From the NCBI GenBank assembly GCA_016186945.1, contig JACPKR010000038.1:15472-79471 (forward strand): a DNA stretch of 64,000 nt, given 5' to 3'. The notes beneath the pieces were generated by a model that made no database searches, was not told the DNA's origin, and saw nothing but the letters and a program-made list of their open reading frames with translations. Position 1 is the stretch's first letter. The number at the start of each line of letters is the position of its first letter. This DNA comes from Deltaproteobacteria bacterium. GTDB taxonomy: Bacteria; Bdellovibrionota_B; Oligoflexia; Oligoflexales; Bog-1112. The position numbers were made by a program, and so were the translations under genes. Positions 7,207 through 49,965 of this stretch are shown piece by piece.

Positions 7207-9153
7207 ATGTTTCCAAATCGTTCGGTGAAGAGGGATTTTATGAATCGCTTCTTAGTGCATGCAATCTTGGCGTACCTGTTGACTGCGTCTCCCTTCTTGA
7301 TTGCCAAAACGTTTACGATCCTTCACACAAATGACTGGCAATCGCGACTGCTTGGTTTTGGGCCTAACTCAAACTACGAACCCTCTCGGATCGGGGACGG
7401 AACGGTCGGGGGGATTGCTCGCCTGGCCACGCTCCTAAAAGCAAAGCGGGAGGCTGCGGGACAAAAGGGAGCTGTGCTTGTCTTGGACGCTGGCGATTTC
7501 ACAATGGGGACCCTCTTTCATACGATCACACGAGAGACAGGTGGCGAGCTTCAACTTCTAAACCTTCTTGGTTACGACGCCGTAGCTTTAGGCAACCATG
7601 AATTTGACTTCGGCCCGCAGGGGCTGGGGGACATGATCGAGTCGGCACTGAGAGAGGCAGGCTCACTTCCCCGACTTCTTGCTTCCAACATGGTCCTCTC
7701 GGAAAACGATCCAAGCGATGCAAAGCTTCGAAAATTCGTCAAGCAAGGCATTATTACCGACCATGCCATCATCGAACGGGGCGAGATCCGATTCGGCCTT
7801 TTTGGAATCATGGGCTACGACGCGTCGGAAGTCACCGTCAGCATGGGAGCTGTCACGTTTTCTGATCCCATCGAAACGTCTCGAAAAATGGTCGCGTTGC
7901 TGAAAGAAAAAAAGGCCGACGTCATCATTGTGCTGTCCCATAGTGGGGTAACAAGAAAGGAAGACGGCTCTTGGGGAGGAGAAGACGTTGAACTCGTCAA
8001 GAAAGTGCCAGGTATTGACATCGTAATCGGTGGGCATTCCCACACGACCCTCGACAAACCGATCCTTGAAGGGAAAACGTCTATCGTTCAGGTAGGTTCT
8101 GAGGTTCAGTTTTTAGGGGAGCTAGAGATGAGGATAAATTCATCCGTCGTCTCGATGCAGAATTATGTGCTGAATGCGATCAATGATCAAATCCTTGGGG
8201 ATAACTTCATAACACAAAAAATAGAGCATTTAGCTGATCTCGTGTCCGAACTCATTCTCAAACCAATGGGGATTCGTTTCGACGAACCTATCGCTAAGAT
8301 TGAAAGTGGTGCCACGAGAGACTTCGAAGATGACGTCATCGGAAACCTCGTTGCCAGCTCCTACAAGAGAGCCACTGGCGCTGATATCGGCTTCACTCCC
8401 AACGGAGTCCTAAGAGACGATCTGCACTATGGACGCGATGGCATTCAAAACTACTCCGATATCTTCCGCATCCTTCCCCTCGGTGTAGGGGAAATCGAAG
8501 ACACTCCCGGTTATCCCCTTGTCAAGGTATGGGTAAACGGAAAAGAATTAAAAAGCATCCTGGAGGTTCTTCTCCTGGCTTACAAGGTCAAGAACGAGAG
8601 TTACTACCCCCGCTTTGCCGGGATCGAATTTGATTACAACCCCCTACGTGTCCCCTTCGACCGTGTTATGGAAGTTCGCCTGCAACAAGGCGACGGCAGC
8701 TACCTTGTCGTCGATTTGAACGACGAAAACTCGCTCTACAGTATTGCCGCAACGTCCTATGAAGGGAAGTTTTTTTGGGTGATCCCTGAAGTCAGCATGG
8801 GGCTGCTCTCGGTAACTCCCAAATTCGAAGACGGGACACCCGTGCATGACATTGGCGATGCGCTCTTCGACGCCCAACCGGACATCAAGGCAATTCAGGA
8901 ATACAAAGCATGGCGAGCCTTGCTCGACCATATTCGTAAACTTGTCCCTGATGAAAAGACGCACCTCGCCTTTATTCCTACATCGGGTGCAGCAGCCCAC
9001 ACGCCGATGATCAAGAGAACAAGCCTCGATCCGCAGGATCTCTATAAAAACGCGACCTGGATCCAATGGACGGCGACTGCTGTTTTTCTTGTCAGCCTTT
9101 CGGTGCTGATTTTCGGCTTTATCCTTCTGATCCGCTGGAAGCGTAGTCGTTAG
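7207..9153 (+). CDS. bifunctional metallophosphatase/5'-nucleotidase, C-terminally membrane anchored
   Basis: Calcineurin-like motifs HTNDWQS, DAGDF, GNHEFD, SHSG and GGHSH, plus a 5'-nucleotidase C-domain. An alternative start at 7240 is possible. Confidence 0.8.
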   Translation: MFPNRSVKRDFMNRFLVHAILAYLLTASPFLIAKTFTILHTNDWQSRLLGFGPNSNYEPSRIGDGTVGGIARLATLLKAKREAAGQKGAVLVLDAGDFTMGTLFHTITRETGGELQLLNLLGYDAVALGNHEFDFGPQGLGDMIESALREAGSLPRLLASNMVLSENDPSDAKLRKFVKQGIITDHAIIERGEIRFGLFGIMGYDASEVTVSMGAVTFSDPIETSRKMVALLKEKKADVIIVLSHSGVTRKEDGSWGGEDVELVKKVPGIDIVIGGHSHTTLDKPILEGKTSIVQVGSEVQFLGELEMRINSSVVSMQNYVLNAINDQILGDNFITQKIEHLADLVSELILKPMGIRFDEPIAKIESGATRDFEDDVIGNLVASSYKRATGADIGFTPNGVLRDDLHYGRDGIQNYSDIFRILPLGVGEIEDTPGYPLVKVWVNGKELKSILEVLLLAYKVKNESYYPRFAGIEFDYNPLRVPFDRVMEVRLQQGDGSYLVVDLNDENSLYSIAATSYEGKFFWVIPEVSMGLLSVTPKFEDGTPVHDIGDALFDAQPDIKAIQEYKAWRALLDHIRKLVPDEKTHLAFIPTSGAAAHTPMIKRTSLDPQDLYKNATWIQWTATAVFLVSLSVLIFGFILLIRWKRSR

Positions 9154-9181
9154 CTGTTTGCCCGAGTTGTTGTTGAATCAA

Positions 9182-9330
9182 TATAGTATTTGGGAAAACG
9201 AATTTGTGGAGAGGACCTTTTTTGAAAAAAAGTTCCCCTCCACACCTCCCCCCAAAAAACTTCAAATACTGAAGTTTTTGAAAAGGGGGTTGGGGAAATA
9301 ACTTTTTTCAAAAAGTTTGTCTGAAATTCT
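9182..9330 (+). mobile_element. MITE-2 copy C (right end degenerate)
   Basis: The left 140 bp match copies A and E. Similarity decays after AAAAAGTTTGTCTGAAATT. The degenerate end overlaps the kinase ORF start. Confidence 0.7.
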
Positions 9331-10625
9331 TGATCCTCAATCTCTTGTCCACCTCGCTGCTTGCTGTAACACCGGCCCATCTTATCAAGCGGGTCCATTT
9401 TCCCCCTCGCCTTTCACAGGAGGTGGCCTACACCCTTTACGATTCCGCAAGTCTGAAAGCGACTCTGGAAGAAAGGTCCGACATTCTTCAGAAAGCAAAT
9501 CGCCTTGCGAATATTCTTAGCACCAAGCTCCCGGTCCGCCGCTCTAAAATTCAATACATGGTCGCGTTTATTGAAAAAAATAGGCAAGAGCACCCTGATG
9601 TCATAGGACTTGGTTCCCTCTACATTCCCAAAAATCACGAGCTTCCTTTTTCAATTCAAGTTTATGACAATGGACACACCTACATCAACCTTGAAGAGGC
9701 TGATCCCGAGAAGAAAAAAGGAGGCTATAAATCGTTTGCCCGGGCCCTCGACTACGATAACGAAACCTTCTACGCCCAACTACGTACCGAGGTGAAAGAC
9801 TTTTACAATCTTAAAAAACAAATCCGTGAACTGGAAATCATGGATCTCCTTCGTGACAGCCCCGAAGCTTTGAACTACCGAGACACCGATATTTACGTAG
9901 TCAAAGAATTCGATGAAGCGAAACATATCCTGTCCATTCATACAGAGGTATATGACACCGATCTTCGCTCTTTCAAAGGGCAGAGGGAGGATACCGAGCA
10001 GCTTCTCACGCTTCTGAAAGGAGCAACAAAAGGTCTTCATGCCATGCATCAACACTCCGTCGTTCATCGTGACTTAAAAGCTGCTAACTACTTTTTTAGG
10101 GAACGAGCCGGGACTAGGGAAATTGTCATCGCCGACTTCGGCTTGAGTCAGAGCGCTGACGATCCTCGCTTTGGCCTTAATCTGTGCGGTACCCGTGGGT
10201 TCATGGCACCAGAATCATGTCATCGCTGGGCTTCGGACCGATCCGCCTTCAGAACTCTAGCCGAGGGGAAAGCTGCGGACGTCTTTTCCCTGGGAATGGT
10301 GTTCCGGGAACTCATCTGGGGTGATCAGGCAAGCCCCGACAGCAAAGCTCTCACCCAACTCAACTACGCAGCCCTGCCCCCGAAAACAAGTGGGAAAACG
10401 CTTGACCCTAAGGAAGTTGAAAGTCGCTTCGAGAGTTTCGTCACAGCCTATGGAGCATCCTACCCTCAAGTTGGAGACGTGAGGCCCAGGACCAAATGCC
10501 TTTTCATTCTAAACGCACTGACTTGGAAAATGTTAGACCCTCATGCCCATGACAGGCCCTCAGCTGAATATGTACTCCAGAGTCTGCAGGATCTGGATCG
10601 CACCCAGCTTTGCGCAAACTCGTGA
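9330..10625 (+). CDS. Ser/Thr protein kinase (Hanks type)
   Basis: HRDLKAANYF catalytic loop, DFGLS and GTRGFMAPE activation segment. The start is uncertain (TTG at 9330 lies inside degenerate MITE-2). Confidence 0.75.
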   Translation: MILNLLSTSLLAVTPAHLIKRVHFPPRLSQEVAYTLYDSASLKATLEERSDILQKANRLANILSTKLPVRRSKIQYMVAFIEKNRQEHPDVIGLGSLYIPKNHELPFSIQVYDNGHTYINLEEADPEKKKGGYKSFARALDYDNETFYAQLRTEVKDFYNLKKQIRELEIMDLLRDSPEALNYRDTDIYVVKEFDEAKHILSIHTEVYDTDLRSFKGQREDTEQLLTLLKGATKGLHAMHQHSVVHRDLKAANYFFRERAGTREIVIADFGLSQSADDPRFGLNLCGTRGFMAPESCHRWASDRSAFRTLAEGKAADVFSLGMVFRELIWGDQASPDSKALTQLNYAALPPKTSGKTLDPKEVESRFESFVTAYGASYPQVGDVRPRTKCLFILNALTWKMLDPHAHDRPSAEYVLQSLQDLDRTQLCANS

Positions 10626-10695
10626 GCCGCCGCAAAGCACCGCCATTGACGAAGGTCCCAGATTTCAGTACAACTTGCCCAGGATAACGCCCCCG

Positions 10696-12309
10696 ATGAG
10701 GAATACCGTGAATCTCGAACACGAAATACAACGACGCCGTACGTTTGCGATCATCTCCCACCCTGACGCCGGCAAAACGACCATTACGGAAAAATTGCTC
10801 CTTTACGGGGGAGCGATCCAGATGGCTGGGACAGTGAAAGCCAAACGCTCAAAAAAATTCGCCACTTCGGATTGGATGGAATTGGAAAAGCAGAGGGGCA
10901 TTTCCGTAACAAGTTCTGTCATGAGTTTTCCTTACGCAGACCATGCCATCAACTTGATCGACACCCCCGGTCACCAGGATTTTTCCGAAGACACGTACCG
11001 CACCCTGACAGCAGTGGATAGCGCCCTCATGTTGATTGACTGCGCTAACGGTGTGGAGACCCAGACCAAGAAGCTTTTCGAAGTCTGCGCCCTGCGTAAA
11101 ACCCCTATCATCACATTTGTTAACAAACTCGATCGACCTGGACGTGATCCGTTCTCCCTATTGGAAGAGATTGAAAATGTCCTGGGTATTGCCACGTATC
11201 CCGTCACCTGGCCCATTGGCATGGGAGATGAATTTCGTGGGGTCTACAACCGCAAGACTCGGGAATTTCTGATCTACGACAGAAATTCGGACCGATCGCG
11301 TAAGGTGCCTCTCAGGGGCCTTTCCCTTGCCGATCCTCTCGTGGATCAAGAACTCGGAGACGAACATGCAAGAGCGTTGCGTGAGGACATCGAGCTACTT
11401 GATGCTGCAGGCGACAGCTTTAAGCTCCAGGCTTACCTGGAAGGAACACTCGCACCCGTTTTTTTTGGAAGCGCGCTAAACAACTTTGGGGTGGAGCTGC
11501 TGTTGGAGAATATTGTCCATCTTGCTCCTGGACCCCAGGCGAGGGATACAGCGCAACGAACGGTTATGGCAGATGAGAAGAATTTCACCGCCTTTGTCTT
11601 CAAAATCCAAGCTAACATGGACCCCGCGCATAGAGACCGTGTGGCCTTCCTCCGCATTTGTTCTGGCAAATTTGAACGTGGCATGAAAGCCCATCATGTG
11701 CGCCTGGGCCGCTTGATGCGCCTGGGACGCCCCACACATTTCATGGCGCAGGATCGTTCCCTAGTCGATGAAGCTTTCGCAGGTGATATCGTCGGTATCC
11801 ACGACCCCGGCTTGTTTCGCATCGGAGATTCCCTGTCATGCGGAGAAACCCTTAACTTCACAGATATCCCCGTGTTTGCTCCGGAACACTTCGTGCGTGT
11901 TGAACTCGCTGACCCACTCAAATCCAAGCAACTGAGAAAGGGCCTGGATCAACTTTCAGAGGAAGGAGCTGTTCAAGTTTTCCGCCCCCTTCACTCTAAC
12001 GATCAGTACTTGGGTGTTGTGGGCCTTCTTCAAATTGATGTTGTAAAATACAGGATCAAAGCAGAATACGGCGTTGACGTGAATATGAAAGCGCTGCCCT
12101 ATACTGCCGCTCGTTGGATTTCCTCGGACGACAAGAAAGCACTCGAAACGTTCAAAATCGACCAGGCAACCCATATCGTGCTGGACTCACATGAACATCC
12201 AACGCTGCTGCTTGATCATGACTGGCGTTTGAAATTTTATCAGGAACGGCACCCTGCTATCAAGTTTTTGCAAGTTTCGGAAGCCGTTCAAACGACCTAT
12301 AGTATTTAA
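10696..12309 (+). CDS. prfC: peptide chain release factor 3
   Basis: RRRTFAIISHPDAGKTT G1 motif, DTPGHQDF and NKLD. ATG at 10696 chosen over the track's upstream extension. The last 3 codons and stop lie in the TA+MITE-2 sequence. Confidence 0.9.
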   Translation: MRNTVNLEHEIQRRRTFAIISHPDAGKTTITEKLLLYGGAIQMAGTVKAKRSKKFATSDWMELEKQRGISVTSSVMSFPYADHAINLIDTPGHQDFSEDTYRTLTAVDSALMLIDCANGVETQTKKLFEVCALRKTPIITFVNKLDRPGRDPFSLLEEIENVLGIATYPVTWPIGMGDEFRGVYNRKTREFLIYDRNSDRSRKVPLRGLSLADPLVDQELGDEHARALREDIELLDAAGDSFKLQAYLEGTLAPVFFGSALNNFGVELLLENIVHLAPGPQARDTAQRTVMADEKNFTAFVFKIQANMDPAHRDRVAFLRICSGKFERGMKAHHVRLGRLMRLGRPTHFMAQDRSLVDEAFAGDIVGIHDPGLFRIGDSLSCGETLNFTDIPVFAPEHFVRVELADPLKSKQLRKGLDQLSEEGAVQVFRPLHSNDQYLGVVGLLQIDVVKYRIKAEYGVDVNMKALPYTAARWISSDDKKALETFKIDQATHIVLDSHEHPTLLLDHDWRLKFYQERHPAIKFLQVSEAVQTTYSI

Positions 12310-12464
12310 GATAATCAATTTGGGGAAAAACTTTTTGAAAAAAGTTATTTCCCCAAGCCCCTTTTCAAAAACTTCAGTATTTAAAGTTTTTTGGGGGGAG
12401 GTGTGGAGGGGAACTTTTTTTCAAAAAAGGTACTCTCCACAAATTCTTTTTCTCAAATACTATA
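12298..12464 (-). mobile_element. MITE-2 copy D (full length)
   Basis: Fills the entire prfC-glnS spacer, flanked by TA. The glnS ATG is 14 nt beyond it. Confidence 0.8.
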
Positions 12465-12477
12465 AAATAGGAAACCC

Positions 12478-14136
12478 ATGGAAACGAAACGATCTAGCAA
12501 CTTCATTCGTCAAATCATCGACGAAGACTTACGAACAGGAAAACATAAACAAATCATCACGCGCTTTCCTCCCGAGCCAAACGGTTATCTTCATGTCGGA
12601 CATGCGAAGGCCCTATGCGTGAATTTCGGCATTGCGGAAGACTACCCAGGGGCATACTGCAACCTGCGCTTCGACGACACCAACCCCCTTAAGGAAGACT
12701 TACACTTCATCGAAGCGATCCAAGACGACATTAGCTGGATGGGCTTCCAGTGGCACGGGGATATCAAATATGCGTCAGCCTATTTTGATAAACTTCACGA
12801 CTATGCTGTACAATTGATAAAAATGGGCAAAGCTTACGTCTGCCGTTTAAGCACGGACGAGATGAAGACCTATAGAGGAACACTTACAGAACCTGGAAAA
12901 GAAAGTCCCGACAGAAATCGTTCTATCGAAGAAAACCTTGCCATGTTCGAGAAAATGCGGGATGGCGTTTACGACGAAGGTTCCTACACTCTACGCGCTA
13001 AAATCGACATGAATTCCGGTAACGTCAACATGCGTGACCCTGTGATCTATAGAATCCTCAAGGCTACCCACCCGATGCTTGGAAATAAGTGGGTCATCTA
13101 CCCCATGTACGACTACACCCACTGCCTGTCCGACTCGCTCGAATATATCACCCACAGCCTTTGCACTCTTGAATTTCAAGATCATCGGCCGCTTTACGAC
13201 TGGTTTATTGACACACTTCGTTGCGAGAGTCATCCACAGCAGATCGAATTTGCTCGCTTGAACGTCAACTATACGGTCACCAGCAAACGAAAGCTACGTG
13301 CTCTCGTAGAAAATAAACTCGTCGATGCTTGGGATGATCCCCGAATGCCAACGCTGAAAGGAATGCGCCGACGAGGTTACACCCCATCTGCTATTAAAGA
13401 TTTCTGTGAGCGCGTCGGTGTGACCAAAAAAGAAACGACGATCGACATAAGCCTTCTTGAAGAGTGCGTCCGGGAAGATCTCAACAAAAATGCCCTACGC
13501 GCTTTCTGTGTTCTCGATCCCTTGAAACTTGTGATTGAAAATTATCCTCAAGGAAAAAAAGAGCAAGTTTCCGCCCCCAATCATCCGCAGAATCCAGACA
13601 TGGGATCCAGACCCCTGCCGTTCTCTCGAGACATCTACATCGAGCGAGATGACTTCGCAGAAGTCCCCCCGAAGGGCTATTTCCGCCTTTCCCCTGGTCA
13701 GGAAGTCCGTCTCCGTTACGCCTACATCATCCGATGTGAGAAAGTGGTGAAAGACGCCTCAGGTAAAGTCACCGAACTGCGCTGTAGCTACGACCCCGAC
13801 ACCTTGGGGAAAAACCCCGTCGGACGCAAAGTCAAAGGCGTCATCCACTGGGTAAGCGCTGCCGACGCTGTGCCCGCTGTTGTCCGCCTCTACGACCGCC
13901 TGTTTACAGTCCCCGACCCTACGGAAAAAGAAAAGGACGGCATTCCCTACACAGATTTTTTCAACCCCCACTCCTTGGAAAGGCGCGACCACGCCATCGT
14001 TGAAGCGAGTTTGAGAAACGCTGCTCCCGAAACGCACTTCCAATTCGAACGACTGGGCTACTTCACCGTAGACCGGGATTCACGAGATAAACCTCTGACT
14101 TTCAACCGCACGGTGTCACTAAGAGAGACTCGGTAG
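12478..14136 (+). CDS. glnS: glutaminyl-tRNA synthetase
   Basis: Class I HIGH motif (PNGYLHVGH), VTSKRKL (KMSKS-like) and a typical GlnRS C-terminal anticodon-binding region. Confidence 0.95.
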
Positions 14137-39965: not shown

Positions 39966-40039
39966 ACTCACGGTGCCCGCTGCTTGTAGCAAGTCACGGT
40001 GGTATAATGTTAAAAACAACTTCAAAGAAAGGTTTTGGC

Positions 40040-41311
40040 ATGACGACGTATTGTGCAAGATTAATTGCATCGTTTGTTCTCCTTTACTCAGCTTCCTTGC
40101 TGGCTACAAACGGAGCAAACCTTATCAGTTCCACCACAGCAAGTCGGGGGATGGGAGGAACGGGCGTAGCGCATTTCCATGATGAAAGAACTGCGGCCAT
40201 TATGAGTCCTTCCCTGCTTTCAAAGTCCATGCTCCCAGACGGAGGGTGGAACTTCGGTCTTGATCTGACGTATCTGAACGGGAACGTCAGGTCTGATGTT
40301 CGCAACTATACCGACACGGTTTCCAGTGGGGAGAAGGAGAGTAAGCACAGGCCTGGGTACATTCCGGCGATCGCTGCCGTTAACCGGGTAAATGAGCACC
40401 TTGTGTGGGGTTTCGTTTACTACGGAGCTGCTGGTTCTATGGTGGACTACAAGGATGAAGTGACTCACAGCAAGCTTAAGGTCGAATACGGAATGGCGCG
40501 CCTCGGTGTAGCCGCGAGTTACAGACAAGAAAAATTCAGCTTCGGTCTGGCCCCTCTCTATAACATGGGAAATTTTGCCATCAATACGAGAGAGGCAAGC
40601 GGTGAACAGTCTTCGCGCAAACCCGACACTCAAGGTGCGTTTGGAATTCAGGTGGGGGCATCGTTGTTTCTCCTGGACGAGTTGACCGTCTCGTTAACCT
40701 ACTTGAGTCCAGCAAAGTTCAAATATAAAGGGGTTGTAGATCTCGATGCCTACACGCTTACAGAAGCTGATGGTAAGCTTGATGACCTTTCCCTAGACCA
40801 ACCCACGGAACTTGCGTTTGGGCTAAGCTGGTTGCCCATAACTGACCTTGGCCTCGCCTTGGATTTCAGAAGCTTAGACTGGGCAGCTACGGAAGGCTTC
40901 GGAGATATCGGCTGGAAGCGTCAACTTGTCATCGCCCTCGGAGGCAAGTACAGAATCGATGCCTTCACTCTGCGAGCTGGGGTGAACATGGCCAATGGTC
41001 CTATTGAAGATGTCTCGGGCGAAGTCGGTTTGGAAACAAGCGATGTCAGTGGGAAGGCGCTCACCAAAGCGGGGATCAGTGGTCTCAACGCAGTCGGCTT
41101 CCCTGCTATCAGTGAGACGCATTACACACTTGGCCTTGGTCACATGGTGAACGAACAATTTTCCTGGGATCTCGCCTTTATGATGAGTCCTAAGGCTAGC
41201 CTTGAGCGAAGCGGCACGGTTACCAGCCCAGCAGGATCGGCTCCTTACTCCTTAAAAACGTCAGTCTCTCAATACGCCTTTTCCGCAGGGGTGAGTTATA
41301 ATCTTTGGTAG
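40040..41311 (+). CDS. outer-membrane transport protein (FadL/OMPP1/TodX family)
   Basis: Signal peptide, alternating beta-strand pattern, and a C-terminal aromatic residue (YNLW). Confidence 0.6.
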   Translation: MTTYCARLIASFVLLYSASLLATNGANLISSTTASRGMGGTGVAHFHDERTAAIMSPSLLSKSMLPDGGWNFGLDLTYLNGNVRSDVRNYTDTVSSGEKESKHRPGYIPAIAAVNRVNEHLVWGFVYYGAAGSMVDYKDEVTHSKLKVEYGMARLGVAASYRQEKFSFGLAPLYNMGNFAINTREASGEQSSRKPDTQGAFGIQVGASLFLLDELTVSLTYLSPAKFKYKGVVDLDAYTLTEADGKLDDLSLDQPTELAFGLSWLPITDLGLALDFRSLDWAATEGFGDIGWKRQLVIALGGKYRIDAFTLRAGVNMANGPIEDVSGEVGLETSDVSGKALTKAGISGLNAVGFPAISETHYTLGLGHMVNEQFSWDLAFMMSPKASLERSGTVTSPAGSAPYSLKTSVSQYAFSAGVSYNLW

Positions 41312-41360
41312 CAAGGAGGAGGTTTGGAGGAAACTGCGCAGCTGGTTCCTCCAAGAAATC
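41311..41360 (+). mobile_element. MITE-1 copy 10 (core only)
   Basis: GCAAGGAGGAGGTTTGGAGGAAACTGCGCAGCTGGTTCCTCCAAGAAATC, occupying the whole 47-nt spacer between convergent stops. Confidence 0.8.
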
Positions 41361-42390
41361 ACTTGCTGTCACTCGAAAGTAGATGAAGGTTGGGAGCGTG
41401 TTCGGATTTTCGATCTTGCGCAACGAGGAAGCGGTGGCCAGGGAGAACCACAAACGCTTCGGCACCGCTTATATTCTTAGGCAATCCCCAAGTGTTGACA
41501 AAAGTCATTTTGTTCTGATCGAGGGAAAGTTCACCAATTTGAGCAATCATCCTGCATTTCTGACTTAGGATGTACAGATTGCCTTCACTATCTGCAGAGA
41601 CCTCGCTTAAATCACAGGGACGGAAGTCTGCGGGAAGTTTCCAGTAATGCAACGGTACGTATGACGTGTGGGACGTATTGAGTGGAAATGTGTCCTTGCT
41701 CCTTATTAACGAACTTATCTGATAACCTTCCGCTGGGTCATCTGCCGGGCCGAATTCAATCATCGCTGCTTTCTCTCGTTCCTTCGCAACCATAATGTGA
41801 CCGTTTTTGAGTAGAACCATACCTTCTCCCAAGGCATTTTCCTTGAGGTCACGCCGATTCCTTGTCAGCTCGAAGTGTTCCAGGTTGATCACTCCTTCGA
41901 CTTCTGTGCTGTCCCTGCGGATGACGACGATTGAGGCAAACTGCTCATGAAGGAGGTATATTCTCCCGGAGGCATCGCTTTTTATAGCTTCCCACTGACT
42001 TGTCATACTTTTCTTGAGCTTGTGACAGTCGGGAATGCGGTCACTGTGACAAATAGCAAAGTAATCAACGATCGAGTCGGTGTAGTCGATGACCTCGGAG
42101 TTTTCCACGAGTCTGCTTGTAAGATTGAAGTGGGTGAAAAGAACTTGGGCGTATCTGTCTCCTACCGCTAAGAGTTCGAAGGTATCGTTTTTCAGAGGAC
42201 GAGCGTCCAGCCCGGATATTTCTCGCAGGGGAAGGTAGAACGTCTGGTCAATCTGTAGCTCGTTTGCCCCCGAAGCGTAATTTTCAAACGTTCCACTCAC
42301 AAAGGACGTGAGGTAAAGGATGACCGAAAAATAGCCCGCCATCATTATGATTCTTATAGGTCTGCGTCTTAACGCTGCTGCACTTACCAT
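41359..42390 (-). CDS. membrane-anchored beta-propeller-like protein (SdiA-regulated/YjiK-like?)
   Basis: N-terminal TM segment. Recurrent blade-like motifs (EISGLDA..., GEGMVLLKNGHIMVAKE, DLSEVSADSEGNLYILS, GAEAFVVLPGHRFLV). Confidence 0.4.
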   Translation of the reverse strand: MVSAAALRRRPIRIIMMAGYFSVILYLTSFVSGTFENYASGANELQIDQTFYLPLREISGLDARPLKNDTFELLAVGDRYAQVLFTHFNLTSRLVENSEVIDYTDSIVDYFAICHSDRIPDCHKLKKSMTSQWEAIKSDASGRIYLLHEQFASIVVIRRDSTEVEGVINLEHFELTRNRRDLKENALGEGMVLLKNGHIMVAKEREKAAMIEFGPADDPAEGYQISSLIRSKDTFPLNTSHTSYVPLHYWKLPADFRPCDLSEVSADSEGNLYILSQKCRMIAQIGELSLDQNKMTFVNTWGLPKNISGAEAFVVLPGHRFLVAQDRKSEHAPNLHLLSSDSK

Positions 42391-42398
42391 TTTCCACC

Positions 42399-43121
42399 TC
42401 AGGAGCCAAGTCGACCGTTAGGATAGAACACGTTAATACTTGAGCCTTTATCCATTTCCTCCAATCGATGGGTCAAATCACTCAAATGGACTTGTCGCAA
42501 ATTAGCTATATTGAATACGAACGAGGTGATCCCGTCGTAAGTTCGGGAACTCACGAACTCGAAACTTCGACACCTGGCTTTGCGAATTTCCGACTCCAGA
42601 TCGGTCAACCTCGTGTCCATCTTTGTATTAAAGGTCAGGACGGCGAAATTTTTCCCGCTAAGAGAAGCAGGTCGAAAAAAGTTCCTTGTGAGTGAGTAAA
42701 TAAGGAAGATAAGGATAAGCCCCGCTCCTATCAACGGTTTTACAATCGCCGTCGACACCGAGCAGGCAAGGGCAATAACAATAAAGGCAACGTCCTCCGC
42801 TCGCTTCACGGGAGAGCGGAAGCGCACGAACGAGAGGGTTCCTAACAATCCGACGGAAAGAGGCAGACTGAACTGTATCACCCAAAAAATCGTCATCAAG
42901 GCTGGGGTTAACAGGATCAGACTTCGGGAAAGACTGGCATCCACCGGTTCGTTTTCCCTGTAGTAGACATTGTAAAGCTGATGCAACATCACCCCGTAAA
43001 TCAGTGCCACCGTTAGCATGATGACGAAAGTCCACGACTGCGGAGAACTTAGATCCAAATCCTGTACGTCCGCCACTCCCATGAGCTGGTAAAAGTAATC
43101 CATCACAACCCCCTTCCACAA
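42399..43121 (-). CDS. DUF4956-like integral membrane protein
   Basis: Four N-terminal TM segments and a soluble C-domain. Abuts the VTC-domain gene, the usual partner of DUF4956. Confidence 0.5.
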   Translation of the reverse strand: MWKGVVMDYFYQLMGVADVQDLDLSSPQSWTFVIMLTVALIYGVMLHQLYNVYYRENEPVDASLSRSLILLTPALMTIFWVIQFSLPLSVGLLGTLSFVRFRSPVKRAEDVAFIVIALACSVSTAIVKPLIGAGLILIFLIYSLTRNFFRPASLSGKNFAVLTFNTKMDTRLTDLESEIRKARCRSFEFVSSRTYDGITSFVFNIANLRQVHLSDLTHRLEEMDKGSSINVFYPNGRLGS

Positions 43122-43847
43122 CTAGTCTTCATTCAGAATCTGCAACCCCAACATGAACTTCGAAAAGGAAACCTGCTGCAAAGCGATCAACCCGATGAAC
43201 GGAAGCTTCGGACGTGTCTGCATCGTCTTGATTTCTAACACGTGCCAGGGAAGCGTTGCGTTCGATATCCGACGAGGCAAACCGTTTGCCATAGAGAACA
43301 CCTCGATGTTCGTATCAAGCGTAATGCGATAATCATACGCACGGTACCGAAAACGGTAATACTTGACACGGATCGAGGGCAAAAGAGGCCCCATCCTCTG
43401 AGCATTGTAGGCAATCGTCTGAAACTGGACGTCATTGGGATCTTTGGGGAACAAGTCTTCCCAGTTAGGTGCCATGCCAAGGGGCGAACTTGCCGTAACA
43501 ATCCTTGCCTTGTACTTGCCCACACCGAACAAGTCTTTCATCTTCTGATGAACTTGTAGGTAGGTGCCTCCCCCATAACCCCTGATGCGAAACTTGGTTT
43601 TTTGAGAATCCCCGTTCTGACATTCGTCTAAGAAACGCTCATTGGGTGTATCGTAGTATATCGAATCAACTATCCCCTCAGGAAAGGGATCCGAACCTCC
43701 ACAAAACTCCTCGAGGACGTTACGGACGAAGTGAAGAGACTCGTGCGGCACCATGAACTTGTACTCGTAGTACGAGAACCGAGCCGGATGAGGAGGATTT
43801 GCAAAAATCGTAAGCCTATTTGGCGTACCTGTCATAACTCCCCCCAC
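43122..43847 (-). CDS. VTC-domain (polyphosphate polymerase-like) protein
   Basis: YEYKFMV start, FRIRGYG and a Tyr/Arg/Lys-rich triphosphate-tunnel pattern typical of bacterial VTC/CYTH-like proteins. Confidence 0.55.
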   Translation of the reverse strand: MGGVMTGTPNRLTIFANPPHPARFSYYEYKFMVPHESLHFVRNVLEEFCGGSDPFPEGIVDSIYYDTPNERFLDECQNGDSQKTKFRIRGYGGGTYLQVHQKMKDLFGVGKYKARIVTASSPLGMAPNWEDLFPKDPNDVQFQTIAYNAQRMGPLLPSIRVKYYRFRYRAYDYRITLDTNIEVFSMANGLPRRISNATLPWHVLEIKTMQTRPKLPFIGLIALQQVSFSKFMLGLQILNED

Positions 43848-44271: not shown

Positions 44272-44479
44272 TACATAGTCCCGATTGAGTAGTTTTTTCT
44301 CTACCCCTGCAATATCGCCCAGCGTTTATTTGCACCCATAAAGTTTGCTATGCCACCGATCCACGCTTTGGTGGTCATTGGAGAGACTCGAATTAAGGCT
44401 TTCAGACGTTCAATATGGAGAAGGTCCCCATAATTTTGGAGCCAACAAAGGACGAGTTTGAGAGTTTTGCTGTCACCAG

Positions 44480-44643
44480 GCGTAAGCCACTTGGGGCAAG
44501 GAGGTGGTTTGGAGGAAACTGCGCAGCTGGTTCCTCCAAGAAAAATCATGGGGGAGCGACCCTTCGCTTTGCTCAGGGCAGGCTTTTCCCTCGCCCCCCC
44601 AAACCCCCCTCTCCCTATTTGCCCCAAGTGGCTTACCCATTAC
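44480..44643 (+). mobile_element. MITE-1 copy 11 (long subfamily, both TIRs)
   Basis: GCGTAAGCCACTTGGGGCAAGG...core...plus the extra segment GAGCGACCCTTCGCTTTGCTCAGGGCAGGC...TTTGCCCCAAGTGGCTTACCCATTAC. Confidence 0.85.
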
Positions 44644-44939: not shown

Positions 44940-44957
44940 CAGCTGGTGGAGCCGCTG

Positions 44958-45245
44958 ATGAAGTTCGTATTTACGGGGCGAATCAGACAGAAACTGAAAG
45001 AGAAACATGGTGTTATCCCCGAAGAAGTTAAGCAGTGTTTTTGTAACCGGGCTGGGCGCTTTCTTGAAGATACGAGAGAGGAGCACCGGACCGCTCCACC
45101 CACACAGTGGTTTATCTCCGAGACAGAAACCGGGAGACGACTCAAGGTGGTTTTCGTCGAGGATGTTGATGAAGGCGTCGTCTACATCAAGACCACTTAC
45201 GAACCGAACGCCACCGAGGAGAAGATTTATGGCAAATACAGTTAA
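44958..45245 (+). CDS. BrnT-like (DUF497-related) toxin candidate
   Basis: About 95 aa. The pattern KL..KHGV..EEV.Q.F......ED.R......T......T..GR.LKVVF........I.T.Y.P resembles BrnT-type toxins. Overlaps the downstream antitoxin gene by 17 nt. Confidence 0.45.
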   Translation: MKFVFTGRIRQKLKEKHGVIPEEVKQCFCNRAGRFLEDTREEHRTAPPTQWFISETETGRRLKVVFVEDVDEGVVYIKTTYEPNATEEKIYGKYS

Positions 45246-45507
45246 GAGAGAGAAACAGTCACTTGAATTTGTCGATGACTCGGATCGTTGGGAGAGCGGC
45301 GAGTTGGGTGCTGACGAGAATTCCGTTCGCGTATCCACCCAAGGCACGGAATCTAGGATCGATGAAGGTCTTGGCCTTCAGATGGTGTCCATGCGGCTGC
45401 CGAAGGATGTGGTGGAACAGTTCAAGGTTCTGGCTAGGGAGCAAGGGCTTGGTTATCAGCCATTCATTCGGCAGATCCTGATGAACTACCTGCGGGATCA
45501 TAAGTAG
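45229..45507 (+). CDS. BrnA/CopG-like ribbon-helix-helix antitoxin candidate
   Basis: The internal ATG at 45229 gives a 92-aa protein. The C-terminal VSMRLPKDVVEQFKVLAREQGLGYQPFIRQILMNYL matches the RHH antitoxin pattern. Confidence 0.5.
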   Translation: MANTVKREKQSLEFVDDSDRWESGELGADENSVRVSTQGTESRIDEGLGLQMVSMRLPKDVVEQFKVLAREQGLGYQPFIRQILMNYLRDHK

Positions 45508-45675: not shown

Positions 45676-45746
45676 GGGCAAGGAGGTGGTTTGGAGGAAA
45701 CTGCGCAGCTGGTTCCTCCAAGAAATCCACGGGGGGGAGGCGGCTC
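45676..45746 (+). mobile_element. MITE-1 copy 12 (core plus the ...GGGGGGGAGGCGGCTC variant end)
   Basis: GGGCAAGGAGGTGGTTTGGAGGAAACTGCGCAGCTGGTTCCTCCAAGAAATCCACGGGGGGGAGGCGGCTC, the same variant end as the 49410-49498 copy. Confidence 0.8.
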
Positions 45747-45760
45747 TAAACAACTCCATG

Positions 45761-47590
45761 CTAAAGCGGCTTTAGAACACGGTCTAATACTTCACGCTTG
45801 TGCTCAATATACCCGACCTCTGTGAGGAGCCTGCTAAACGCATCCCCAAAACTGTCTAAGGACTGCTGAACGCAAGATGTGAAAGATTGGTTCATCGAAC
45901 TTTCCGTTAAGAGCATTGCTCGGACAGCTAGCGTGCCCGCGACTACAGCCACACTCGTTCCCTTTCCTCCAACCCCCTTGTCCGGAGACGTCGATTTTGT
46001 GCTTGCATCTACACCTTGCAATCTTTGAGCAGTCGCAAATTCCTGCGCAAATGTACGCGCCTGAGCCTCAACCCTACTCGGGATGGACATGATCCCCCCC
46101 CCGAAATCCTTCTTGTAGATTCTCCCTAAGCAAGTCCCTGTCACCGCAGCACAATTATGGGTTAGGATATTGTACTCCCTACCGTACGAATTTTGAGCGC
46201 CCATCATTCTTTCTCTCATTGTTCGATAGGTCTGCAAATTATGGGCTATCTTCGCTCTGCCTGCCACACTGAGTTGCTCAAATTTCGGGTACGCAAGCTC
46301 TGGCTTGAGTCGCTGCTGTTCTGATGGAAAAATGTGATGCCAATATATGTCCTCCCCTTCAAGCAAGCCCATTTCCGCCTTCAGGGAACTTGTCAGGGTC
46401 GAGTAACTTTCAAGATTGTCCCTTAGAAAGACATAGTTTCGCATGTCCACCTGCAATTTTTGTAAAATTTCTGGCTCAGATGTTCTCAGACGCTCATAGT
46501 CATCAAAGCCTGTAAGAAAGTCTGCTCGTTTCAGGTAGGCTTCAAGAGCTTCATTAGTGGACAAATTTAACCTAGTTTTTAAAGATTCCTTGACCTCAGC
46601 AAGGTGGCTCTTCAACCCACTGTCGTAAATATTTTTTTCTTCAAAGTAAACTGTTTGTTGGAACCATTTGTGAAAGCTCTCGAACTGCTCTTCGGTCATG
46701 GGAGGCAATTCCGTAATCACCCTTCTGGTTGTTCCAAAACGAGCCGCATCAACCTCATAGCTATTTCCCATAGCCCAGGAAATATAGACACGGCGTGGAC
46801 TAGGCGTTTCGTCACCAATGAGGAGAGCTGAGTGTCCAAACATTTTGAGAAGAGCTATGCTTGGATCAATTTTTTCAGGATGCCATGTAATCAATCTAAC
46901 TCTTATAGCGCCGACCTGGCCTGGAGTTGCAAGACCAAGGGACAGCTTTTGCCCAAAAGAGCTGAAGTTTATCTGCCCTTGTCTGTGATACTGTTCCTGG
47001 AAGAATTCAGGGCCGTTTTCAATTAATTCATCTACAGACCCCCTATAATCCTCAACCGACTTTTTAAAAGTATCTTCCTCCTGGTTATTCCCTAGACAAA
47101 CATCCAGAGAATTCTTATGGGCTTCAAACGAGTTGTAAAGTTCTGTCAGTGTCTCTGACATTTCGATATTTAGTGATAACGTTAGGCGATGAACATCGAA
47201 CATAGTCTGATCGTTATAGGAATCGAAAGTTATCTTCCGTTCCTCTGACCATGGGGAGCATTTCCCATCGTCACTCTGCCCGGAAAATTGACATCGTCTA
47301 AATTGCAGAGAGTTGGCTCCAGGAACAAATCCAACCAGGTTAAGTTTCGACTCAGATGAAAAGTCTTCGACACAAGATTGCTTGTCACAAATTTTGTATC
47401 GGAAAAACTCACCCTTGTTCAGCGGAAACTCAAGAACAGGAATTTTCTCGTTATTGACGGTCTGATACGAAATGTTCCCCAGCTGCTGCCCAGAAAGCGT
47501 CTGCTCCTCCTCATGGCTTTTTTTGCAGGTTGACATGAGGAATAGAATTGAACATAGAGCTAGAGTAGCAACTCTGCGAACTCGTAGCAT
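45761..47590 (-). CDS. hypothetical lipoprotein, paralog A (His...Asn-Cys motif)
   Basis: Lipobox LFLMSTC. Cys-rich N-domain, FGHSALLIG (His codon 46832-46834) and YNILTHNCAAV (Cys codon 46151-46153). Paralogous to the upstream gene. Confidence 0.6.
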   Translation of the reverse strand: MLRVRRVATLALCSILFLMSTCKKSHEEEQTLSGQQLGNISYQTVNNEKIPVLEFPLNKGEFFRYKICDKQSCVEDFSSESKLNLVGFVPGANSLQFRRCQFSGQSDDGKCSPWSEERKITFDSYNDQTMFDVHRLTLSLNIEMSETLTELYNSFEAHKNSLDVCLGNNQEEDTFKKSVEDYRGSVDELIENGPEFFQEQYHRQGQINFSSFGQKLSLGLATPGQVGAIRVRLITWHPEKIDPSIALLKMFGHSALLIGDETPSPRRVYISWAMGNSYEVDAARFGTTRRVITELPPMTEEQFESFHKWFQQTVYFEEKNIYDSGLKSHLAEVKESLKTRLNLSTNEALEAYLKRADFLTGFDDYERLRTSEPEILQKLQVDMRNYVFLRDNLESYSTLTSSLKAEMGLLEGEDIYWHHIFPSEQQRLKPELAYPKFEQLSVAGRAKIAHNLQTYRTMRERMMGAQNSYGREYNILTHNCAAVTGTCLGRIYKKDFGGGIMSIPSRVEAQARTFAQEFATAQRLQGVDASTKSTSPDKGVGGKGTSVAVVAGTLAVRAMLLTESSMNQSFTSCVQQSLDSFGDAFSRLLTEVGYIEHKREVLDRVLKPL

Positions 47591-47602
47591 TTAAACTCCA
47601 AG

Positions 47603-49186
47603 TCATCGTTTTTGATACATGTTGTCAAATCGTTCAGACTGTGCTTGAAGAATGGCTTCAAAAAAAGCCTGAGAGCGAACCTGATATTCTTCCAGCAGTC
47701 CACTACACGATCCTTCTAGACGCATAGAGGCAGCAGCACCGGCAACCGCTGCTCCGGTTAAAACAATTCCCAACAGAGCGACTCCCCTGGCATCACCGCT
47801 TGTGCGTCTGGCCTTCATCTCTCCCCGAACAGCCTCCTGCTTATGAGCCAAAGCCTGTGAACGCACTAGTGCTGGGGTGTCACTTGCTTGGATTGTTCTA
47901 TGTTGGTAGGGACGGAATTCATCGGTATTGTAAATGTCCTGTAAAACGCACATGCCTCTTTGCGCGCAATTCCAATTTGCTTTGTTATAGCTCTTTTCCT
48001 TCTGTTTTCTTGTACGATAGGCTCGCTGATATTCAAGAACCTTTTGGTAAGAATCAGAGTCCGGTTTTTTCCGAAGGGTTTCCTGCCATTTTTTCCCTTC
48101 TCTCCCTTCCAACCACGAATACGCGTCTTTTTGCGCAGTGCCCGCAGGGAGGTCTTGCTTGAACTTGGAAAACGTTGTCTCTTCAACTTTGCGAAGTTGG
48201 GTGTCCAACTCTTCATCCCAATAGCCACCCGTCTTCTGGTATGCCGCTTTGAACTGAGCCGCTTTCTCTTTCGTGATTTCCGGAAGTTCGATCACTTCCA
48301 GATCGGTCTTCTGGAATACATCCACGTCTTCACTCCAGCTATTGCGAAACGGAACTGAGTAGTAATCTGCCCCTTCTGGAAGAGATCTTGTTTCGAGTGC
48401 CGATTCCAGGTTAAATGCTCCTACAACGATGGCAACATGCCGATCATTGATTATTCTCTGGTAGAGTCTATCAAAGAATTGGGGCAACTCCTTCTGCTTC
48501 CAAACAAGCAAGGTTACTTTTACCGACTCTTTGTTAACGAGTTCAAATTTGTCAGTTTGTTCGGTTTGAAGAGCAGAAATTATGAACTGCGGGTTGGTCT
48601 CAACATCGATACGATTAGCAAAATGGAACGGAGTAGGGTCCCTTACTATAGCTGCTGAAACAAAGCTGTCGGGCTGGATGCCACACTGACGTAATTTTTC
48701 TCTCCACTCAACCGCATAAAGAAAAAACTCACTCGCTGACGATCTCACCAGAAGAGAATTCGTCCGTTCATTTGCCACGAACGTCGACAATTCAGCCGGA
48801 ACCTCTCCCTGCTGATAAGGAAAGGGAGGAAGCGAGTCTCGGCAAGCCAAACCGTCAATGTTTGTCCAACGACAAAAAAAAAGGGTGACCGTGTACTGTC
48901 CCGGAGCAAGCCAGTCTATTGTATGATTCTGAAAGGTAAAGAAATCAGTCTGGCATTCAGAATCACTTGCCTTGTCGGGGCAGATTTCGACCCGTACAAT
49001 GTCTTGCGGGTCCTTCTTTGGGAAATTTAAACCAAGAAACTTGGTCCCTTTGGCAGCTTCAGTTTCAAAGGTCTCATAAACCAAAACTCGATTAGGGCCT
49101 GTTGATTCCCCTTCCAGCACTGGCCTCTTAGGGGTTTTGCACCCAAAAGCAAGAAAAAGGAAAACTACAACGCATATGTTTTTCAT
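47603..49186 (-). CDS. hypothetical lipoprotein, paralog B (His...Asn-Cys motif)
   Basis: ATG at 49186 gives MKNICVVVFLFLAFGC (lipobox). DRHVAIVVG (His codon 48437-48439) and YNKANWNCAQRG (Cys codon 47966-47968). Confidence 0.6.
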   Translation of the reverse strand: MKNICVVVFLFLAFGCKTPKRPVLEGESTGPNRVLVYETFETEAAKGTKFLGLNFPKKDPQDIVRVEICPDKASDSECQTDFFTFQNHTIDWLAPGQYTVTLFFCRWTNIDGLACRDSLPPFPYQQGEVPAELSTFVANERTNSLLVRSSASEFFLYAVEWREKLRQCGIQPDSFVSAAIVRDPTPFHFANRIDVETNPQFIISALQTEQTDKFELVNKESVKVTLLVWKQKELPQFFDRLYQRIINDRHVAIVVGAFNLESALETRSLPEGADYYSVPFRNSWSEDVDVFQKTDLEVIELPEITKEKAAQFKAAYQKTGGYWDEELDTQLRKVEETTFSKFKQDLPAGTAQKDAYSWLEGREGKKWQETLRKKPDSDSYQKVLEYQRAYRTRKQKEKSYNKANWNCAQRGMCVLQDIYNTDEFRPYQHRTIQASDTPALVRSQALAHKQEAVRGEMKARRTSGDARGVALLGIVLTGAAVAGAAASMRLEGSCSGLLEEYQVRSQAFFEAILQAQSERFDNMYQKR

Positions 49187-49229
49187 TTTCAGTTCCCAAT
49201 GTGCATAATCCATGTTGTTGTTTCAGTAT

Positions 49230-49498
49230 ATTATGCATAAGCCACGCGGGGCAAGGAGGTGGTTTGGAGGAAACGTAATGCGTAAGCCACGCGGGGCAAG
49301 GAGGTGGTTTGGAGGAAACGTAATGCGTAAGCCACGCGGGGCAAGGAGATGGTTTGGAGGAAACGTAATGCGTAAGCGACGCGGGGCAAGGAGGTGGTTT
49401 GGAGGAAACGTAATGCGTAAGCCACTCGGGGCAAGGAGGTGGTTTGGAGGAAACTGCGCAGCTGGTTCCTCCAAGAAATCCCTGGGGGGAGGCGGCTC
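49230..49498 (+). repeat. MITE-1 copy 13: four 45-bp tandem units of TIR plus left arm, then a complete left half with core hairpin
   Basis: Units start at 49230, 49275, 49320, 49365 and 49410. The unit is GTAATGCGTAAGCCACGCGGGGCAAGGAGGTGGTTTGGAGGAAAC. Confidence 0.9.
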
Positions 49499-49500
49499 CT

Positions 49501-49965
49501 CTAAGCTTTCTGATCCCCCGACCTTCCAAAGGAATCAACGGGCAGTCTGGTGGGATGACCGCGTTCATTGACAGACACAAGGCGGACAAGGCCAGTGACA
49601 TGCGTGCTAGTTACCCCGTTTTCATTTAGACACGCAGTATGGTGGCAGGTGACTACTGCAGGATGGTCGAACACGATCTTACTTTTTATTGTGATGACGT
49701 CGCCATGACGGACGGGTTTGTGGAAGCTAAGCTGAGCATCCTTCACGACGAAGTGCTTGCCTTCGAGGTAAAGTTTCCTCAGTTGCTCGCGACCGAAAAG
49801 TTCTTCCCGAGCACGTTCGAAGAATTTTAGAAAATTAGCGTGATAGACATAACCCGTGAAGTCCGTATCTTCATAGTAAATCGGCACCTGGAATTCACCT
49901 TCCACAAGTCTCCTCGAAAGTTTCCGTCTAGGAGCGGCTTTTGAATTTATTGAGAAGGTCCTCAA
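49501..49965 (-). CDS. acyl-CoA thioesterase, 4HBT/YbgC family
   Basis: YYEDTDFTGYVYHANFLKFFERAREE hot-dog motif. A GTG at 49905 would avoid overlap with tex. Confidence 0.75.
   Translation of the reverse strand: MRTFSINSKAAPRRKLSRRLVEGEFQVPIYYEDTDFTGYVYHANFLKFFERAREELFGREQLRKLYLEGKHFVVKDAQLSFHKPVRHGDVITIKSKIVFDHPAVVTCHHTACLNENGVTSTHVTGLVRLVSVNERGHPTRLPVDSFGRSGDQKA

Follow-up and report, generated by a model that had tools for sequence, protein, structure and literature searches.

In a 64,000-nucleotide (nt) window of contig JACPKR010000038.1 (GenBank assembly GCA_016186945.1), a metagenome-assembled genome (MAG) labeled 'Deltaproteobacteria bacterium', we analyzed two adjacent open reading frames (ORFs), here A and B, whose products are annotated in the databases as the hypothetical proteins HYW48_08115 and HYW48_08120. 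The two are probably exported, lipid-anchored thiol enzymes with a permuted papain-like core of the PPPDE type, the catalytic domain being split by a helical insert. A preliminary description of this DNA, made from the sequence alone, had proposed such an enzyme, with a His first, an Asn–Cys second, and a long helical insert. The invariance of these residues, minimal family members, weak Pfam matches, hhalign alignments, AlphaFold2 models, and Foldseek searches support the proposal at the level of fold and superfamily.

Translation of both ORFs confirmed the features that the same description had listed, namely the lipoboxes, a Cys-rich N-terminal domain (the strings YKICDKQSCVEDF and VEICPDKASDSECQTDF are both present), a His motif, and an Asn–Cys (NC) motif. 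The motifs read FGH253SALLIGD and Y473NILTHNC480A in A and DRH250VAIVVGA and Y400NKANWNC407A in B, and their spacing, given earlier as about 160–230 residues, measured 227 residues from His to Cys in A and 157 in B. The cysteines occur in parallel and in the same order, at positions 22, 68, 73, 100, 111, 165, 480, 487, and 573 of A and 16, 69, 78, 105, 115, 168, 407, 413, and 494 of B. Direct similarity between the two proteins was weak (BLASTP E=2e-4 for the His region and E=0.17 for the NC region). Despite this, their paralogy is secure at the sequence level, because a hidden Markov model (HMM) made without A and B, from the 18 remaining family members, matched both over the full length (5.8e-84 for A and 4.9e-53 for B); it gave no further match among the 423 ORFs of the window. 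An HMM of the catalytic core only matched both halves of the domain in each protein, the His half at 2.8e-25 in A and 1.5e-16 in B and the NC half at 3.7e-8 and 1.7e-8, respectively. With default settings, MAFFT misaligned the NC segment of B onto residues 394–427 of A (SYSTLTSSLKAEMGLLEGEDIYWHHIF). We considered this segment as a degenerate internal copy of the Cys helix and rejected the idea: BLAST self-comparison showed no internal repeat, and the family alignment places the true NC motif of A with all the others.

The coordinates of the two genes and their parts, all on the minus strand, are as follows.

47603..49186, minus strand: ORF B, the upstream paralog, 527 residues from the ATG at 49186; an alternative ATG at 49213 gives 536 residues.
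49139..49186, minus strand: B residues 1–16, predicted signal peptide with lipobox-like LAFG before C16 (hydropathy and translation).
48215..48529, minus strand: B residues 220–324, N-terminal half of the predicted core with His250 (codon 48437–48439), from BLASTP and the core HMM.
48032..48214, minus strand: B residues 325–385, a shorter predicted helical insert, from alignment and translation.
47828..48031, minus strand: B residues 386–453, C-terminal half of the predicted core with Y400NKANWN406C407 (Cys codon 47966–47968), from the core HMM.
47606..47791, minus strand: B residues 466–527, a Gly/Ala-rich hydrophobic stretch (Kyte–Doolittle 2.04), MRLEGSC494, and a C-terminal helix.
45761..47590, minus strand: ORF A, the downstream paralog, 609 residues.
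47525..47590, minus strand: A residues 1–22, predicted signal peptide with lipobox-like LMST before C22, a Cys conserved in at least 90% of the family.
47225..47476, minus strand: A residues 39–122, an all-beta N-terminal domain predicted as an FN3/Ig-like sandwich, with Cys68, Cys73, Cys100, Cys111, and PG-x-Y (AlphaFold2 predicted local distance difference test score, pLDDT, about 90).
46979..47209, minus strand: A residues 128–204, a predicted helical stalk with the nearly invariant Cys165, from model and alignment.
46640..46915, minus strand: A residues 226–317, N-terminal half of the predicted catalytic core, with strands, GH253SALL, Y269-x-S-W...GN-x3-D281, and the helix LP-x-(I/M)-T-E-E-Q-F...W.
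46832..46834, minus strand: codon of A His253, the predicted general base, invariant; in the core model it opens a beta strand.
46190..46639, minus strand: A residues 318–467, an all-helical insert splitting the predicted catalytic domain, absent from family members P0010 and P0020.
46013..46189, minus strand: A residues 468–526, C-terminal half of the predicted core, with Y473NILTHN479C480, the Cys helix, a loop with the invariant Pro504, and the final helix.
46151..46153, minus strand: codon of A Cys480, the predicted nucleophile, invariant and first residue of helix 105–117 of the core model.
45764..45964, minus strand: A residues 543–609, a Gly/Ala-rich hydrophobic stretch (Kyte–Doolittle 1.53), an h-x-L-x-E motif, the conserved Cys573, and an amphipathic C-terminal helix.

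The stop codon of B and the ATG of A lie 12 nt apart in the same orientation, and GGAG stands 7 nt upstream of the latter; given this gap and this position of the GGAG, the two genes almost certainly form an operon and are co-transcribed. Neither an intrinsic terminator nor a strong promoter could be assigned. The N terminus of A is MLRVRRVATLALCSILFLMSTC followed by KK, and that of B, read from the ATG at 49186, is MKNICVVVFLFLAFGC followed by KT. The signal sequences are short, basic, and hydrophobic, running up to the lipobox as LFLMST before C22 and KK in A and as FLAFG before C16 and KT in B, and each combines a hydrophobic h-region with a lipobox bearing the conserved Cys. We infer that A and B are Sec-exported lipoproteins, anchored to lipid at Cys22 and Cys16, respectively.

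Since default MAFFT had misaligned the Cys motif, the profile used for searching was made from B aligned with A lacking residues 372–443. Run exhaustively with HMMER against 1.84 billion cluster representatives, this profile identified 18 further distant relatives, with E-values from 9e-31 to 7e-4. Three word-indexed searches of 5.8 billion proteins, one of them with a 20-sequence alignment, returned only A or B themselves, and a pattern scan of species-representative genomes, based on five aligned sequences, gave a single match, in the MAG HK-STAS-BDEL_B-1. The family has so far been found only in MAGs labeled 'Deltaproteobacteria bacterium', one of them named BDEL_B, and it has no entry in Pfam (a copy with models to 2025), NCBIfam, PADLOC, or PHROGs. 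By these sequence searches, A and B found a rare, new, and uncatalogued bacterial family. Nearly all relatives share the lipobox Cys (at least 90%), the four-Cys N-terminal domain with PG-x-Y, a helix ending in a Cys equivalent to Cys165, the His block, the NC block, and a C-terminal tail with a Cys equivalent to Cys573. The closest relative of B (P0003; E=9e-31) is the middle one of three tandem family genes of 518, 578, and 580 residues at 8442–13500 of another contig (L003; GCA_023250635.1, JAHFAI010000045.1); the third of these is without the Cys-rich N-terminal domain and keeps GHAALAF and NNCADV.

Two of the relatives, P0010 (188 residues) and P0020 (163 residues), consist of the bare domain behind a signal peptide and have 76 and 82 residues between His and Cys. 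P0012 marks the opposite end of the range, with 669 residues from His to Cys, of which the insert takes up about 590. With minimal members spaced at 76–82 residues, the alignments indicate that the charged helical segment is a family-specific insertion of variable length (0 to about 590 residues), located at one fixed site and outside the conserved core. A and B are predicted to be lipoproteins with a disulfide-stabilized FN3-like domain, a helical stalk, and a catalytic domain split by the insert.

In the core alignments, three elements were invariant in all 15–17 relatives having both halves of the domain: the His, the Asn–Cys, and a Pro that follows the Cys by about 24 residues. The two motifs singled out at the outset are conserved among homologs. 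Near-invariance extends to Tyr269, Ser271, and Asp281, which belong to the Y-x-S-W...GN-x3-D block, and to the Tyr at position −7 from the Cys, present in 13 of 16 members. We also considered a disulfide between Cys480 and Cys487. A Cys at +7 (Cys487 of A) or +6 (B) is not conserved in the family, the conserved Cys of P0020 is the sole Cys of the whole protein, and an i/i+7 pair of cysteines on one helix is too distant for a disulfide; we rejected this pairing, and Cys480 is, judging from the alignment, not a structural disulfide partner. A natural contrast is provided by a 720-residue tandem paralog preceding P0007 (L011 5230–7392; GCA_020050275.1, JAHZTE010008960.1), 30% identical over 760 columns, in which the His is replaced by Tyr, the Asn–Cys by Ser–Ser, and the Y-x-S-W/GN-x3-D block is degraded while the other architecture is kept. 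This gene appears to encode a pseudoenzyme twin beside the intact enzyme gene P0007, and the joint loss of His and Asn–Cys is as expected if the two form a catalytic pair and this copy has become a pseudoenzyme.

Comparisons with known families pointed to a small group of permuted papain-like enzymes. Among Pfam models, the only recurrent matches of family members were Peptidase_C97/PPPDE and Lnb_N (formerly DUF4105), both weak and both at the NC helix: P0010 matched PPPDE at E=0.0018 (18.6 bits) and Lnb_N at E=0.007 (16.4 bits), P0020 matched Lnb_N at E=0.0017 (18.4 bits), and the core of A with the insert deleted matched Lnb_N at E=0.028 (14.4 bits) and PPPDE at E=0.15 (12.4 bits). Weak Lnb_N matches were seen for three family members and the A core. 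No member matched LRAT (PF04970) at E≤1, and the family motif is NCA-x-(A/V), with no NCEHF. In PADLOC and PHROGs, A and B had isolated weak matches only, and phmmer searches of both against PDB sequences gave nothing relevant. For profile alignment we used human DeSI-1 and PLAAT3 sequences checked to be identical to PDB chains 3ebq_A and 4fa0_A. Using hhalign, the core profile aligned with DeSI-1 over 103 columns (P=0.006) and paired the family His with His38, the LP-x-I-T-E-E-Q-F helix with VTEEIFLEYL, the Y-x6-C with Y101...C108, and the invariant Pro with the IPSY/LPSEV segment; with PLAAT3 it aligned over a 13-residue NC motif only (P=0.026). The PPPDE signature, His...Tyr-x6-Cys with Asn before the Cys, is present in both A (H253/Y473/N479/C480) and B (H250/Y400/N406/C407). 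The active center of PPPDE and Cln5 is His38–Tyr101–Cys108 (PMC9012467; PMC3142127), and H253–Y473–C480 of A and H250–Y400–C407 of B match it in order and in Tyr–Cys spacing.

The AlphaFold2 model of full-length A, computed from the 20-sequence alignment, had a pLDDT of 75 and placed a beta sandwich at 39–122, long helices at 128–204, a mixed alpha/beta region at 229–311, an all-helical block at 323–466, a helix starting exactly at Cys480, a helix at 504–526, a poorly predicted hydrophobic stretch, and a long C-terminal helix. Foldseek searches with this model found only FN3 and cytokine-receptor domains, matching the N-terminal domain (best PDB matches at E about 0.01), and nothing for the core. 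We then modeled the core separately from A residues 226–317 and 468–524, with the insert removed and the contiguous segments of homologs as the alignment, and obtained a pLDDT of 90.9 and a predicted template-modeling score (pTM) of 0.87. Here the conserved His (28 in the construct) is the first residue of strand 28–33, the Cys (105) the first residue of helix 105–117, and the His lies N-terminal to the Cys. In the model, His at a strand start and Cys at a helix start is the papain-like arrangement, and their order is that of the permuted enzymes; that the two side chains are juxtaposed is implied only by the structural match to DeSI-1. That match, 2wp7, came first in the PDB (E=1.2e-2, probability 0.92, TM-score 0.44) and PPPDE1, 3ebq, second (E=3.1e-2, probability 0.87, TM-scores 0.46/0.48); the rest among the matches listed had probabilities of 0.06 or below. 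In BFVD, the best match was a PPPDE-domain protein of Bodo saltans virus (probability 0.97), followed at lower ranks by the poxvirus G6R homolog OPG091 (0.51), a pithovirus LRAT protein (0.20), and a DUF4105 protein (0.16). The only credible structural matches of the core model, at modest scores, are PPPDE/DeSI structures, a group named in the preliminary description.

Several results weigh against the assignment. Neither A nor B matched any Pfam or NCBIfam model even at E≤10, a search of PDB sequences with the core profile gave nothing relevant, and the gathering score of PF05903 (29.2 bits) was not reached by any member, P0010 with its 18.6 bits being the best. The hhalign probability for DeSI-1 was 6%, Foldseek support was modest (E about 1e-2 and TM-scores of 0.44–0.48), and the confident core model describes an artificial construct with the insert deleted, the full-length model having a pTM of 0.46. 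No third polar active-site residue could be assigned, positions −3 to −1 of the lipoboxes are noncanonical (MST in A and AFG in B), and the gene neighborhoods give no functional clue beyond tandem paralogy. The gathering score of PF13387 (Lnb_N, 22.2 bits) was likewise out of reach, with 18.4 bits for P0020 as the best, and since the thresholds were tested and not reached, A and B are not to be filed under PF05903, PF13387, or PF04970. Of the four candidate families named from the sequence, two, Peptidase_C97/PPPDE and DUF4105, did recur, weakly; LRAT gave no match, and no curated threshold was reached.

In the permuted papain-like superfamily, a His-activated Cys thiolate attacks a carbonyl to form an acyl-thioester enzyme, which is resolved by water or by an acceptor. 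Following this scheme, Cys480 of A and Cys407 of B, at the N terminus of their helix, would be deprotonated by His253 and His250, respectively, and the Tyr at −7 and the Asn at −1 would shape the oxyanion and substrate site. Attack of the thiolate on a carbonyl would yield the acyl-thioester enzyme, to be resolved by water in a hydrolase or by an acceptor in a transferase, and the proteins would most likely be secreted thiol hydrolases or acyltransferases acting on envelope lipids or peptides. The insert lies between the helix after the last core strand and the Cys helix. In solved permuted structures the loop at this site lines one side of the S1 pocket (PMC3142127), and the helical insert of 60–150 residues in A and B would therefore most likely act as a lid or a substrate-selecting module. 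If the proteins are catalytic, there is about an even chance that the substrate is a fatty-acyl ester, thioester, or amide of an envelope lipid or lipoprotein. Such a substrate is favored by the presumed membrane tethering of A and B and by the relatives: all solved permuted members have hydrophobic S1 pockets (PMC3142127), PPPDE1, PPPDE2, and Cln5 are efficient S-depalmitoylases and poor peptidases (PMC9012467), DUF4105/Lnb is a periplasmic lipoprotein N-acyltransferase (PMC11573676), and TseH and Tox-Act1 are phospholipases (PMC12994826).

The main rival explanation retains the fold and the dyad but makes the proteins peptidases, isopeptidases, or amidases acting on peptidoglycan stem peptides or on (iso)peptide bonds of envelope proteins. 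The predicted export of the proteins and the identity of the nearest structures, DeSI-1 and PPPDE1, would suit this, as PPPDE/DeSI proteins were first described as deSUMOylases or deubiquitinases and canonical NlpC/P60 enzymes are cell-wall peptidases (PMC3142127, PMC9012467). However, the characterized permuted members act mostly on acyl groups or lipids and have hydrophobic S1 pockets (PMC3142127, PMC12994826, PMC11573676), PPPDE1 and PPPDE2 combine weak peptidase with strong thioesterase activity (PMC9012467), and the cell-wall-binding domains LysM, SH3b, and PG_binding were not detected in Pfam scans of A, B, and the family. We consider a peptidase of this kind unlikely.

The proteins might also have no enzymatic activity and serve as envelope adhesins or scaffolds, the His and Cys being a metal-binding or structural pair, or the fold being a pseudoenzyme scaffold. 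A catalytically dead paralog does exist in the family, the joint loss of His and Cys would fit a metal site too, and structural surface proteins typically contain large helical and FN3-like modules. Yet A and B keep every invariant residue, the Asn at −1, the Tyr at −7, and the Pro match the active-site signature of PPPDE and not a metal site, and the Cys at a helix N terminus and the His at a strand start are placed as in papain-like enzymes, which makes such a role highly improbable. Least probable of all, and hardly to be expected, is that the papain-like resemblance is fortuitous, resting on short motifs and a small alpha/beta fold in a family whose true fold and function are unrelated. 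No similarity score to a known family indeed reaches threshold, but four independent methods (Pfam HMMs, hhalign, and Foldseek searches of PDB and of BFVD) all point to one small set of families and to no other. In addition, the His, the helix, the Tyr-x6-Cys, and the Pro align in colinear order, and the minimal members have canonical size and spacing.

Taking A and B as permuted papain-like lipoprotein enzymes, one can sketch a bolder picture, to which we give only a small chance. The family would comprise lineage-restricted, envelope-anchored acyl-thioester enzymes (lipases, depalmitoylases, or transacylases), gated by a hypervariable helical module of 0 to about 590 residues in the S1-pocket loop and arranged in tandem sets of active and dead copies, for example as heteromers, that remodel the lipids or lipoproteins of their own, prey, or host envelopes.

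Some features outside the catalytic core recur in the family. Cys165 (47096–47098) and Cys573 (45872–45874) of A, and Cys168 and Cys494 of B, are nearly invariant in long members and absent from the minimal ones, which suggests that a Cys165–Cys573 disulfide may staple the N-terminal helical stalk to the C-terminal helix. If such a bond is real, the Gly/Ala-rich hydrophobic stretch, which about half of the homologs lack, cannot span the membrane as a stop-transfer segment. A short motif, h-x-L-x-(T/A/S/G)-(D/E/G), occurs twice, directly before the catalytic core and directly after the C-terminal hydrophobic stretch, at residues 215–222 (about 46925–46948) and 559–565 (about 45896–45916) of A, at about 205–212 and 488–494 of B, and at the same positions in most homologs (LSLGLATPG and MLLTESS in A, FELVNKE and MRLEGSC in B). 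The two copies may be paired strands closing a domain, a sorting signal, or processing sites. An unrelated 565-residue lipoprotein encoded beside P0004 (L004 11746–13443) has the same tail, a Gly/Ala-rich hydrophobic stretch followed by LRLAE and a helix.

We compared the neighborhoods of A and B with those of six homologs and found no shared partner except tandem paralogs, these being the pair in the window, the L003 trio, and the active/dead pair of L011. No secretion-system, immunity, or toxin context was seen around A, B, or the homologs. Upstream of B, on the same strand, lie genes for Tex and a 4HBT-type thioesterase, separated from B by an array of five tandem 45-bp repeats; the thioesterase gene was considered as a functional partner and rejected, as the array intervenes and the gene is not conserved near homologs. 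Downstream of A, a single copy of the same repeat is followed by a small cassette containing a CopG antitoxin gene. This two-gene cassette (44946–45507, plus strand), whose second product matches CopG_antitoxin at E=4e-6 and whose preceding ORF of 99 residues overlaps the start of the second, is likely a type II toxin–antitoxin pair. Further downstream, 40007–43847 holds a FadL/TodX-type outer-membrane transporter (40007–41311, plus strand), a weak SdiA-regulated-like protein, DUF4956, and a VTC-domain (polyphosphate-related) gene; these envelope- and lipid-uptake-related neighbors are not conserved near homologs.

The repeat is a dispersed element resembling repetitive extragenic palindromic (REP) sequences, of the form GGGCAAGGAGGTGGTTTGGAGGAAAC-TGCGCAGCTG-GTTCCTCC with a hairpin-forming core. 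It is found at 49233–49454, 44494–44543, 45676–45725, and about 17 other sites across the window, and its 20-mer occurs 20 times in the 64 kb where 0 are expected. Five tandem copies stand directly upstream of B and single copies just 3′ of A and 1.2 kb beyond; the hairpin 3′ of A shows no gain in stability over shuffled sequence. Three spurious ORFs (49128–49601, 49212–49571, and 44301–44627) read through the repeats. The short-read contigs L001 and L002, which carry the gene pair, measure only 3.4–3.6 kb and contain little besides the two genes, which is consistent with assembly breaks at the REP-like repeats.

The PPPDE-like branch of permuted papain-fold enzymes is named for 'dsRNA viruses and eukaryotes'; with the present family it would also take in exported lipoproteins of bacteria. 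Its insertion of 0 to about 590 residues at one fixed site offers a natural experiment on how a thiol acyl-enzyme can acquire a lid or ruler module at its substrate pocket. Fold relatives such as Lnb, LnsA, Cln5, and Tox-Act1 have recently been recognized as modifying lipids or lipoproteins, so the family is a reasonable place to seek new envelope-lipid chemistry, in bacteria that are poorly studied and possibly predatory. With the family alignment and its motifs, annotators would be able to put a testable prediction in place of 'hypothetical protein'.

Among known systems, permuted NlpC/P60-type enzymes of the TseH/Tox-Act1/YiiX type, which are lipid-targeting toxins and hydrolases, resemble A and B in being bacterial, in their place in the periplasm or envelope, and in the permuted His...Cys core. 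Some of them have demonstrated phospholipase or acyl-directed activity (PMC12994826, PMC3142127). None appeared among the best 50 PDB matches of Foldseek listed or among the Pfam matches, and, unlike theirs, the loci of A, B, and the homologs are without type VI secretion system, immunity-gene, or toxin-cassette context. Lnb/DUF4105 (PF13387), the lipoprotein N-acyltransferase of Bacteroides, likewise has a periplasmic permuted NlpC/P60-type domain with conserved His...Cys, its residues being Asn66–His49–Cys148 (PMC11573676). It has five transmembrane helices, whereas the hydropathy profiles of A and B have nothing of that module and rise only at the signal peptide and at one C-terminal hydrophobic stretch each; phyletic distribution and architecture also differ, and the Foldseek probability was only 0.16.

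LRAT/H-REV107 enzymes (PLAAT; PF04970; 4fa0, 4dot) share with A and B the order of an H-box and an NC motif and the Tyr at −7 from the Cys, and an acyl-thioester mechanism is expected in common. The N-terminal lipid anchor of A and B together with the Gly/Ala-rich stretch after the core recalls the C-terminal anchor of PLAAT/LRAT proteins, and the tail anchor of PLAAT3, whose sequence we verified, resembles that hydrophobic segment in its position C-terminal to the catalytic domain. The motif itself differs, being NCEHF in LRAT and NCA-x-(A/V) in our family, and the viral LRAT protein reached a Foldseek probability of only 0.20.

PPPDE/DeSI proteins (PF05903; 2wp7, 3ebq) are cytosolic and eukaryotic or viral, whereas A, B, and their relatives are predicted to be exported bacterial lipoproteins that add FN3-like and helical stalk modules and an insert of 0–590 residues in the catalytic domain. 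DeSI-1 is without the Y-x-S-W...GN-x3-D block conserved in our family, and identity to the solved structures is about 13%. In both groups the His comes first and the Cys second, Tyr-x5-Asn-Cys is shared with Y101NLFEHNC108 of DeSI-1, a Pro follows the Cys helix, and the spacing of 70 residues between His38 and Cys108 of DeSI-1 (PMC9012467) compares with 76–82 in the minimal members. They are the only credible Foldseek neighbors of the A core, and their hhalign alignment is colinear; as LRAT aligns over the 13-residue NC motif only, PPPDE is clearly closer to the A/B family than LRAT.

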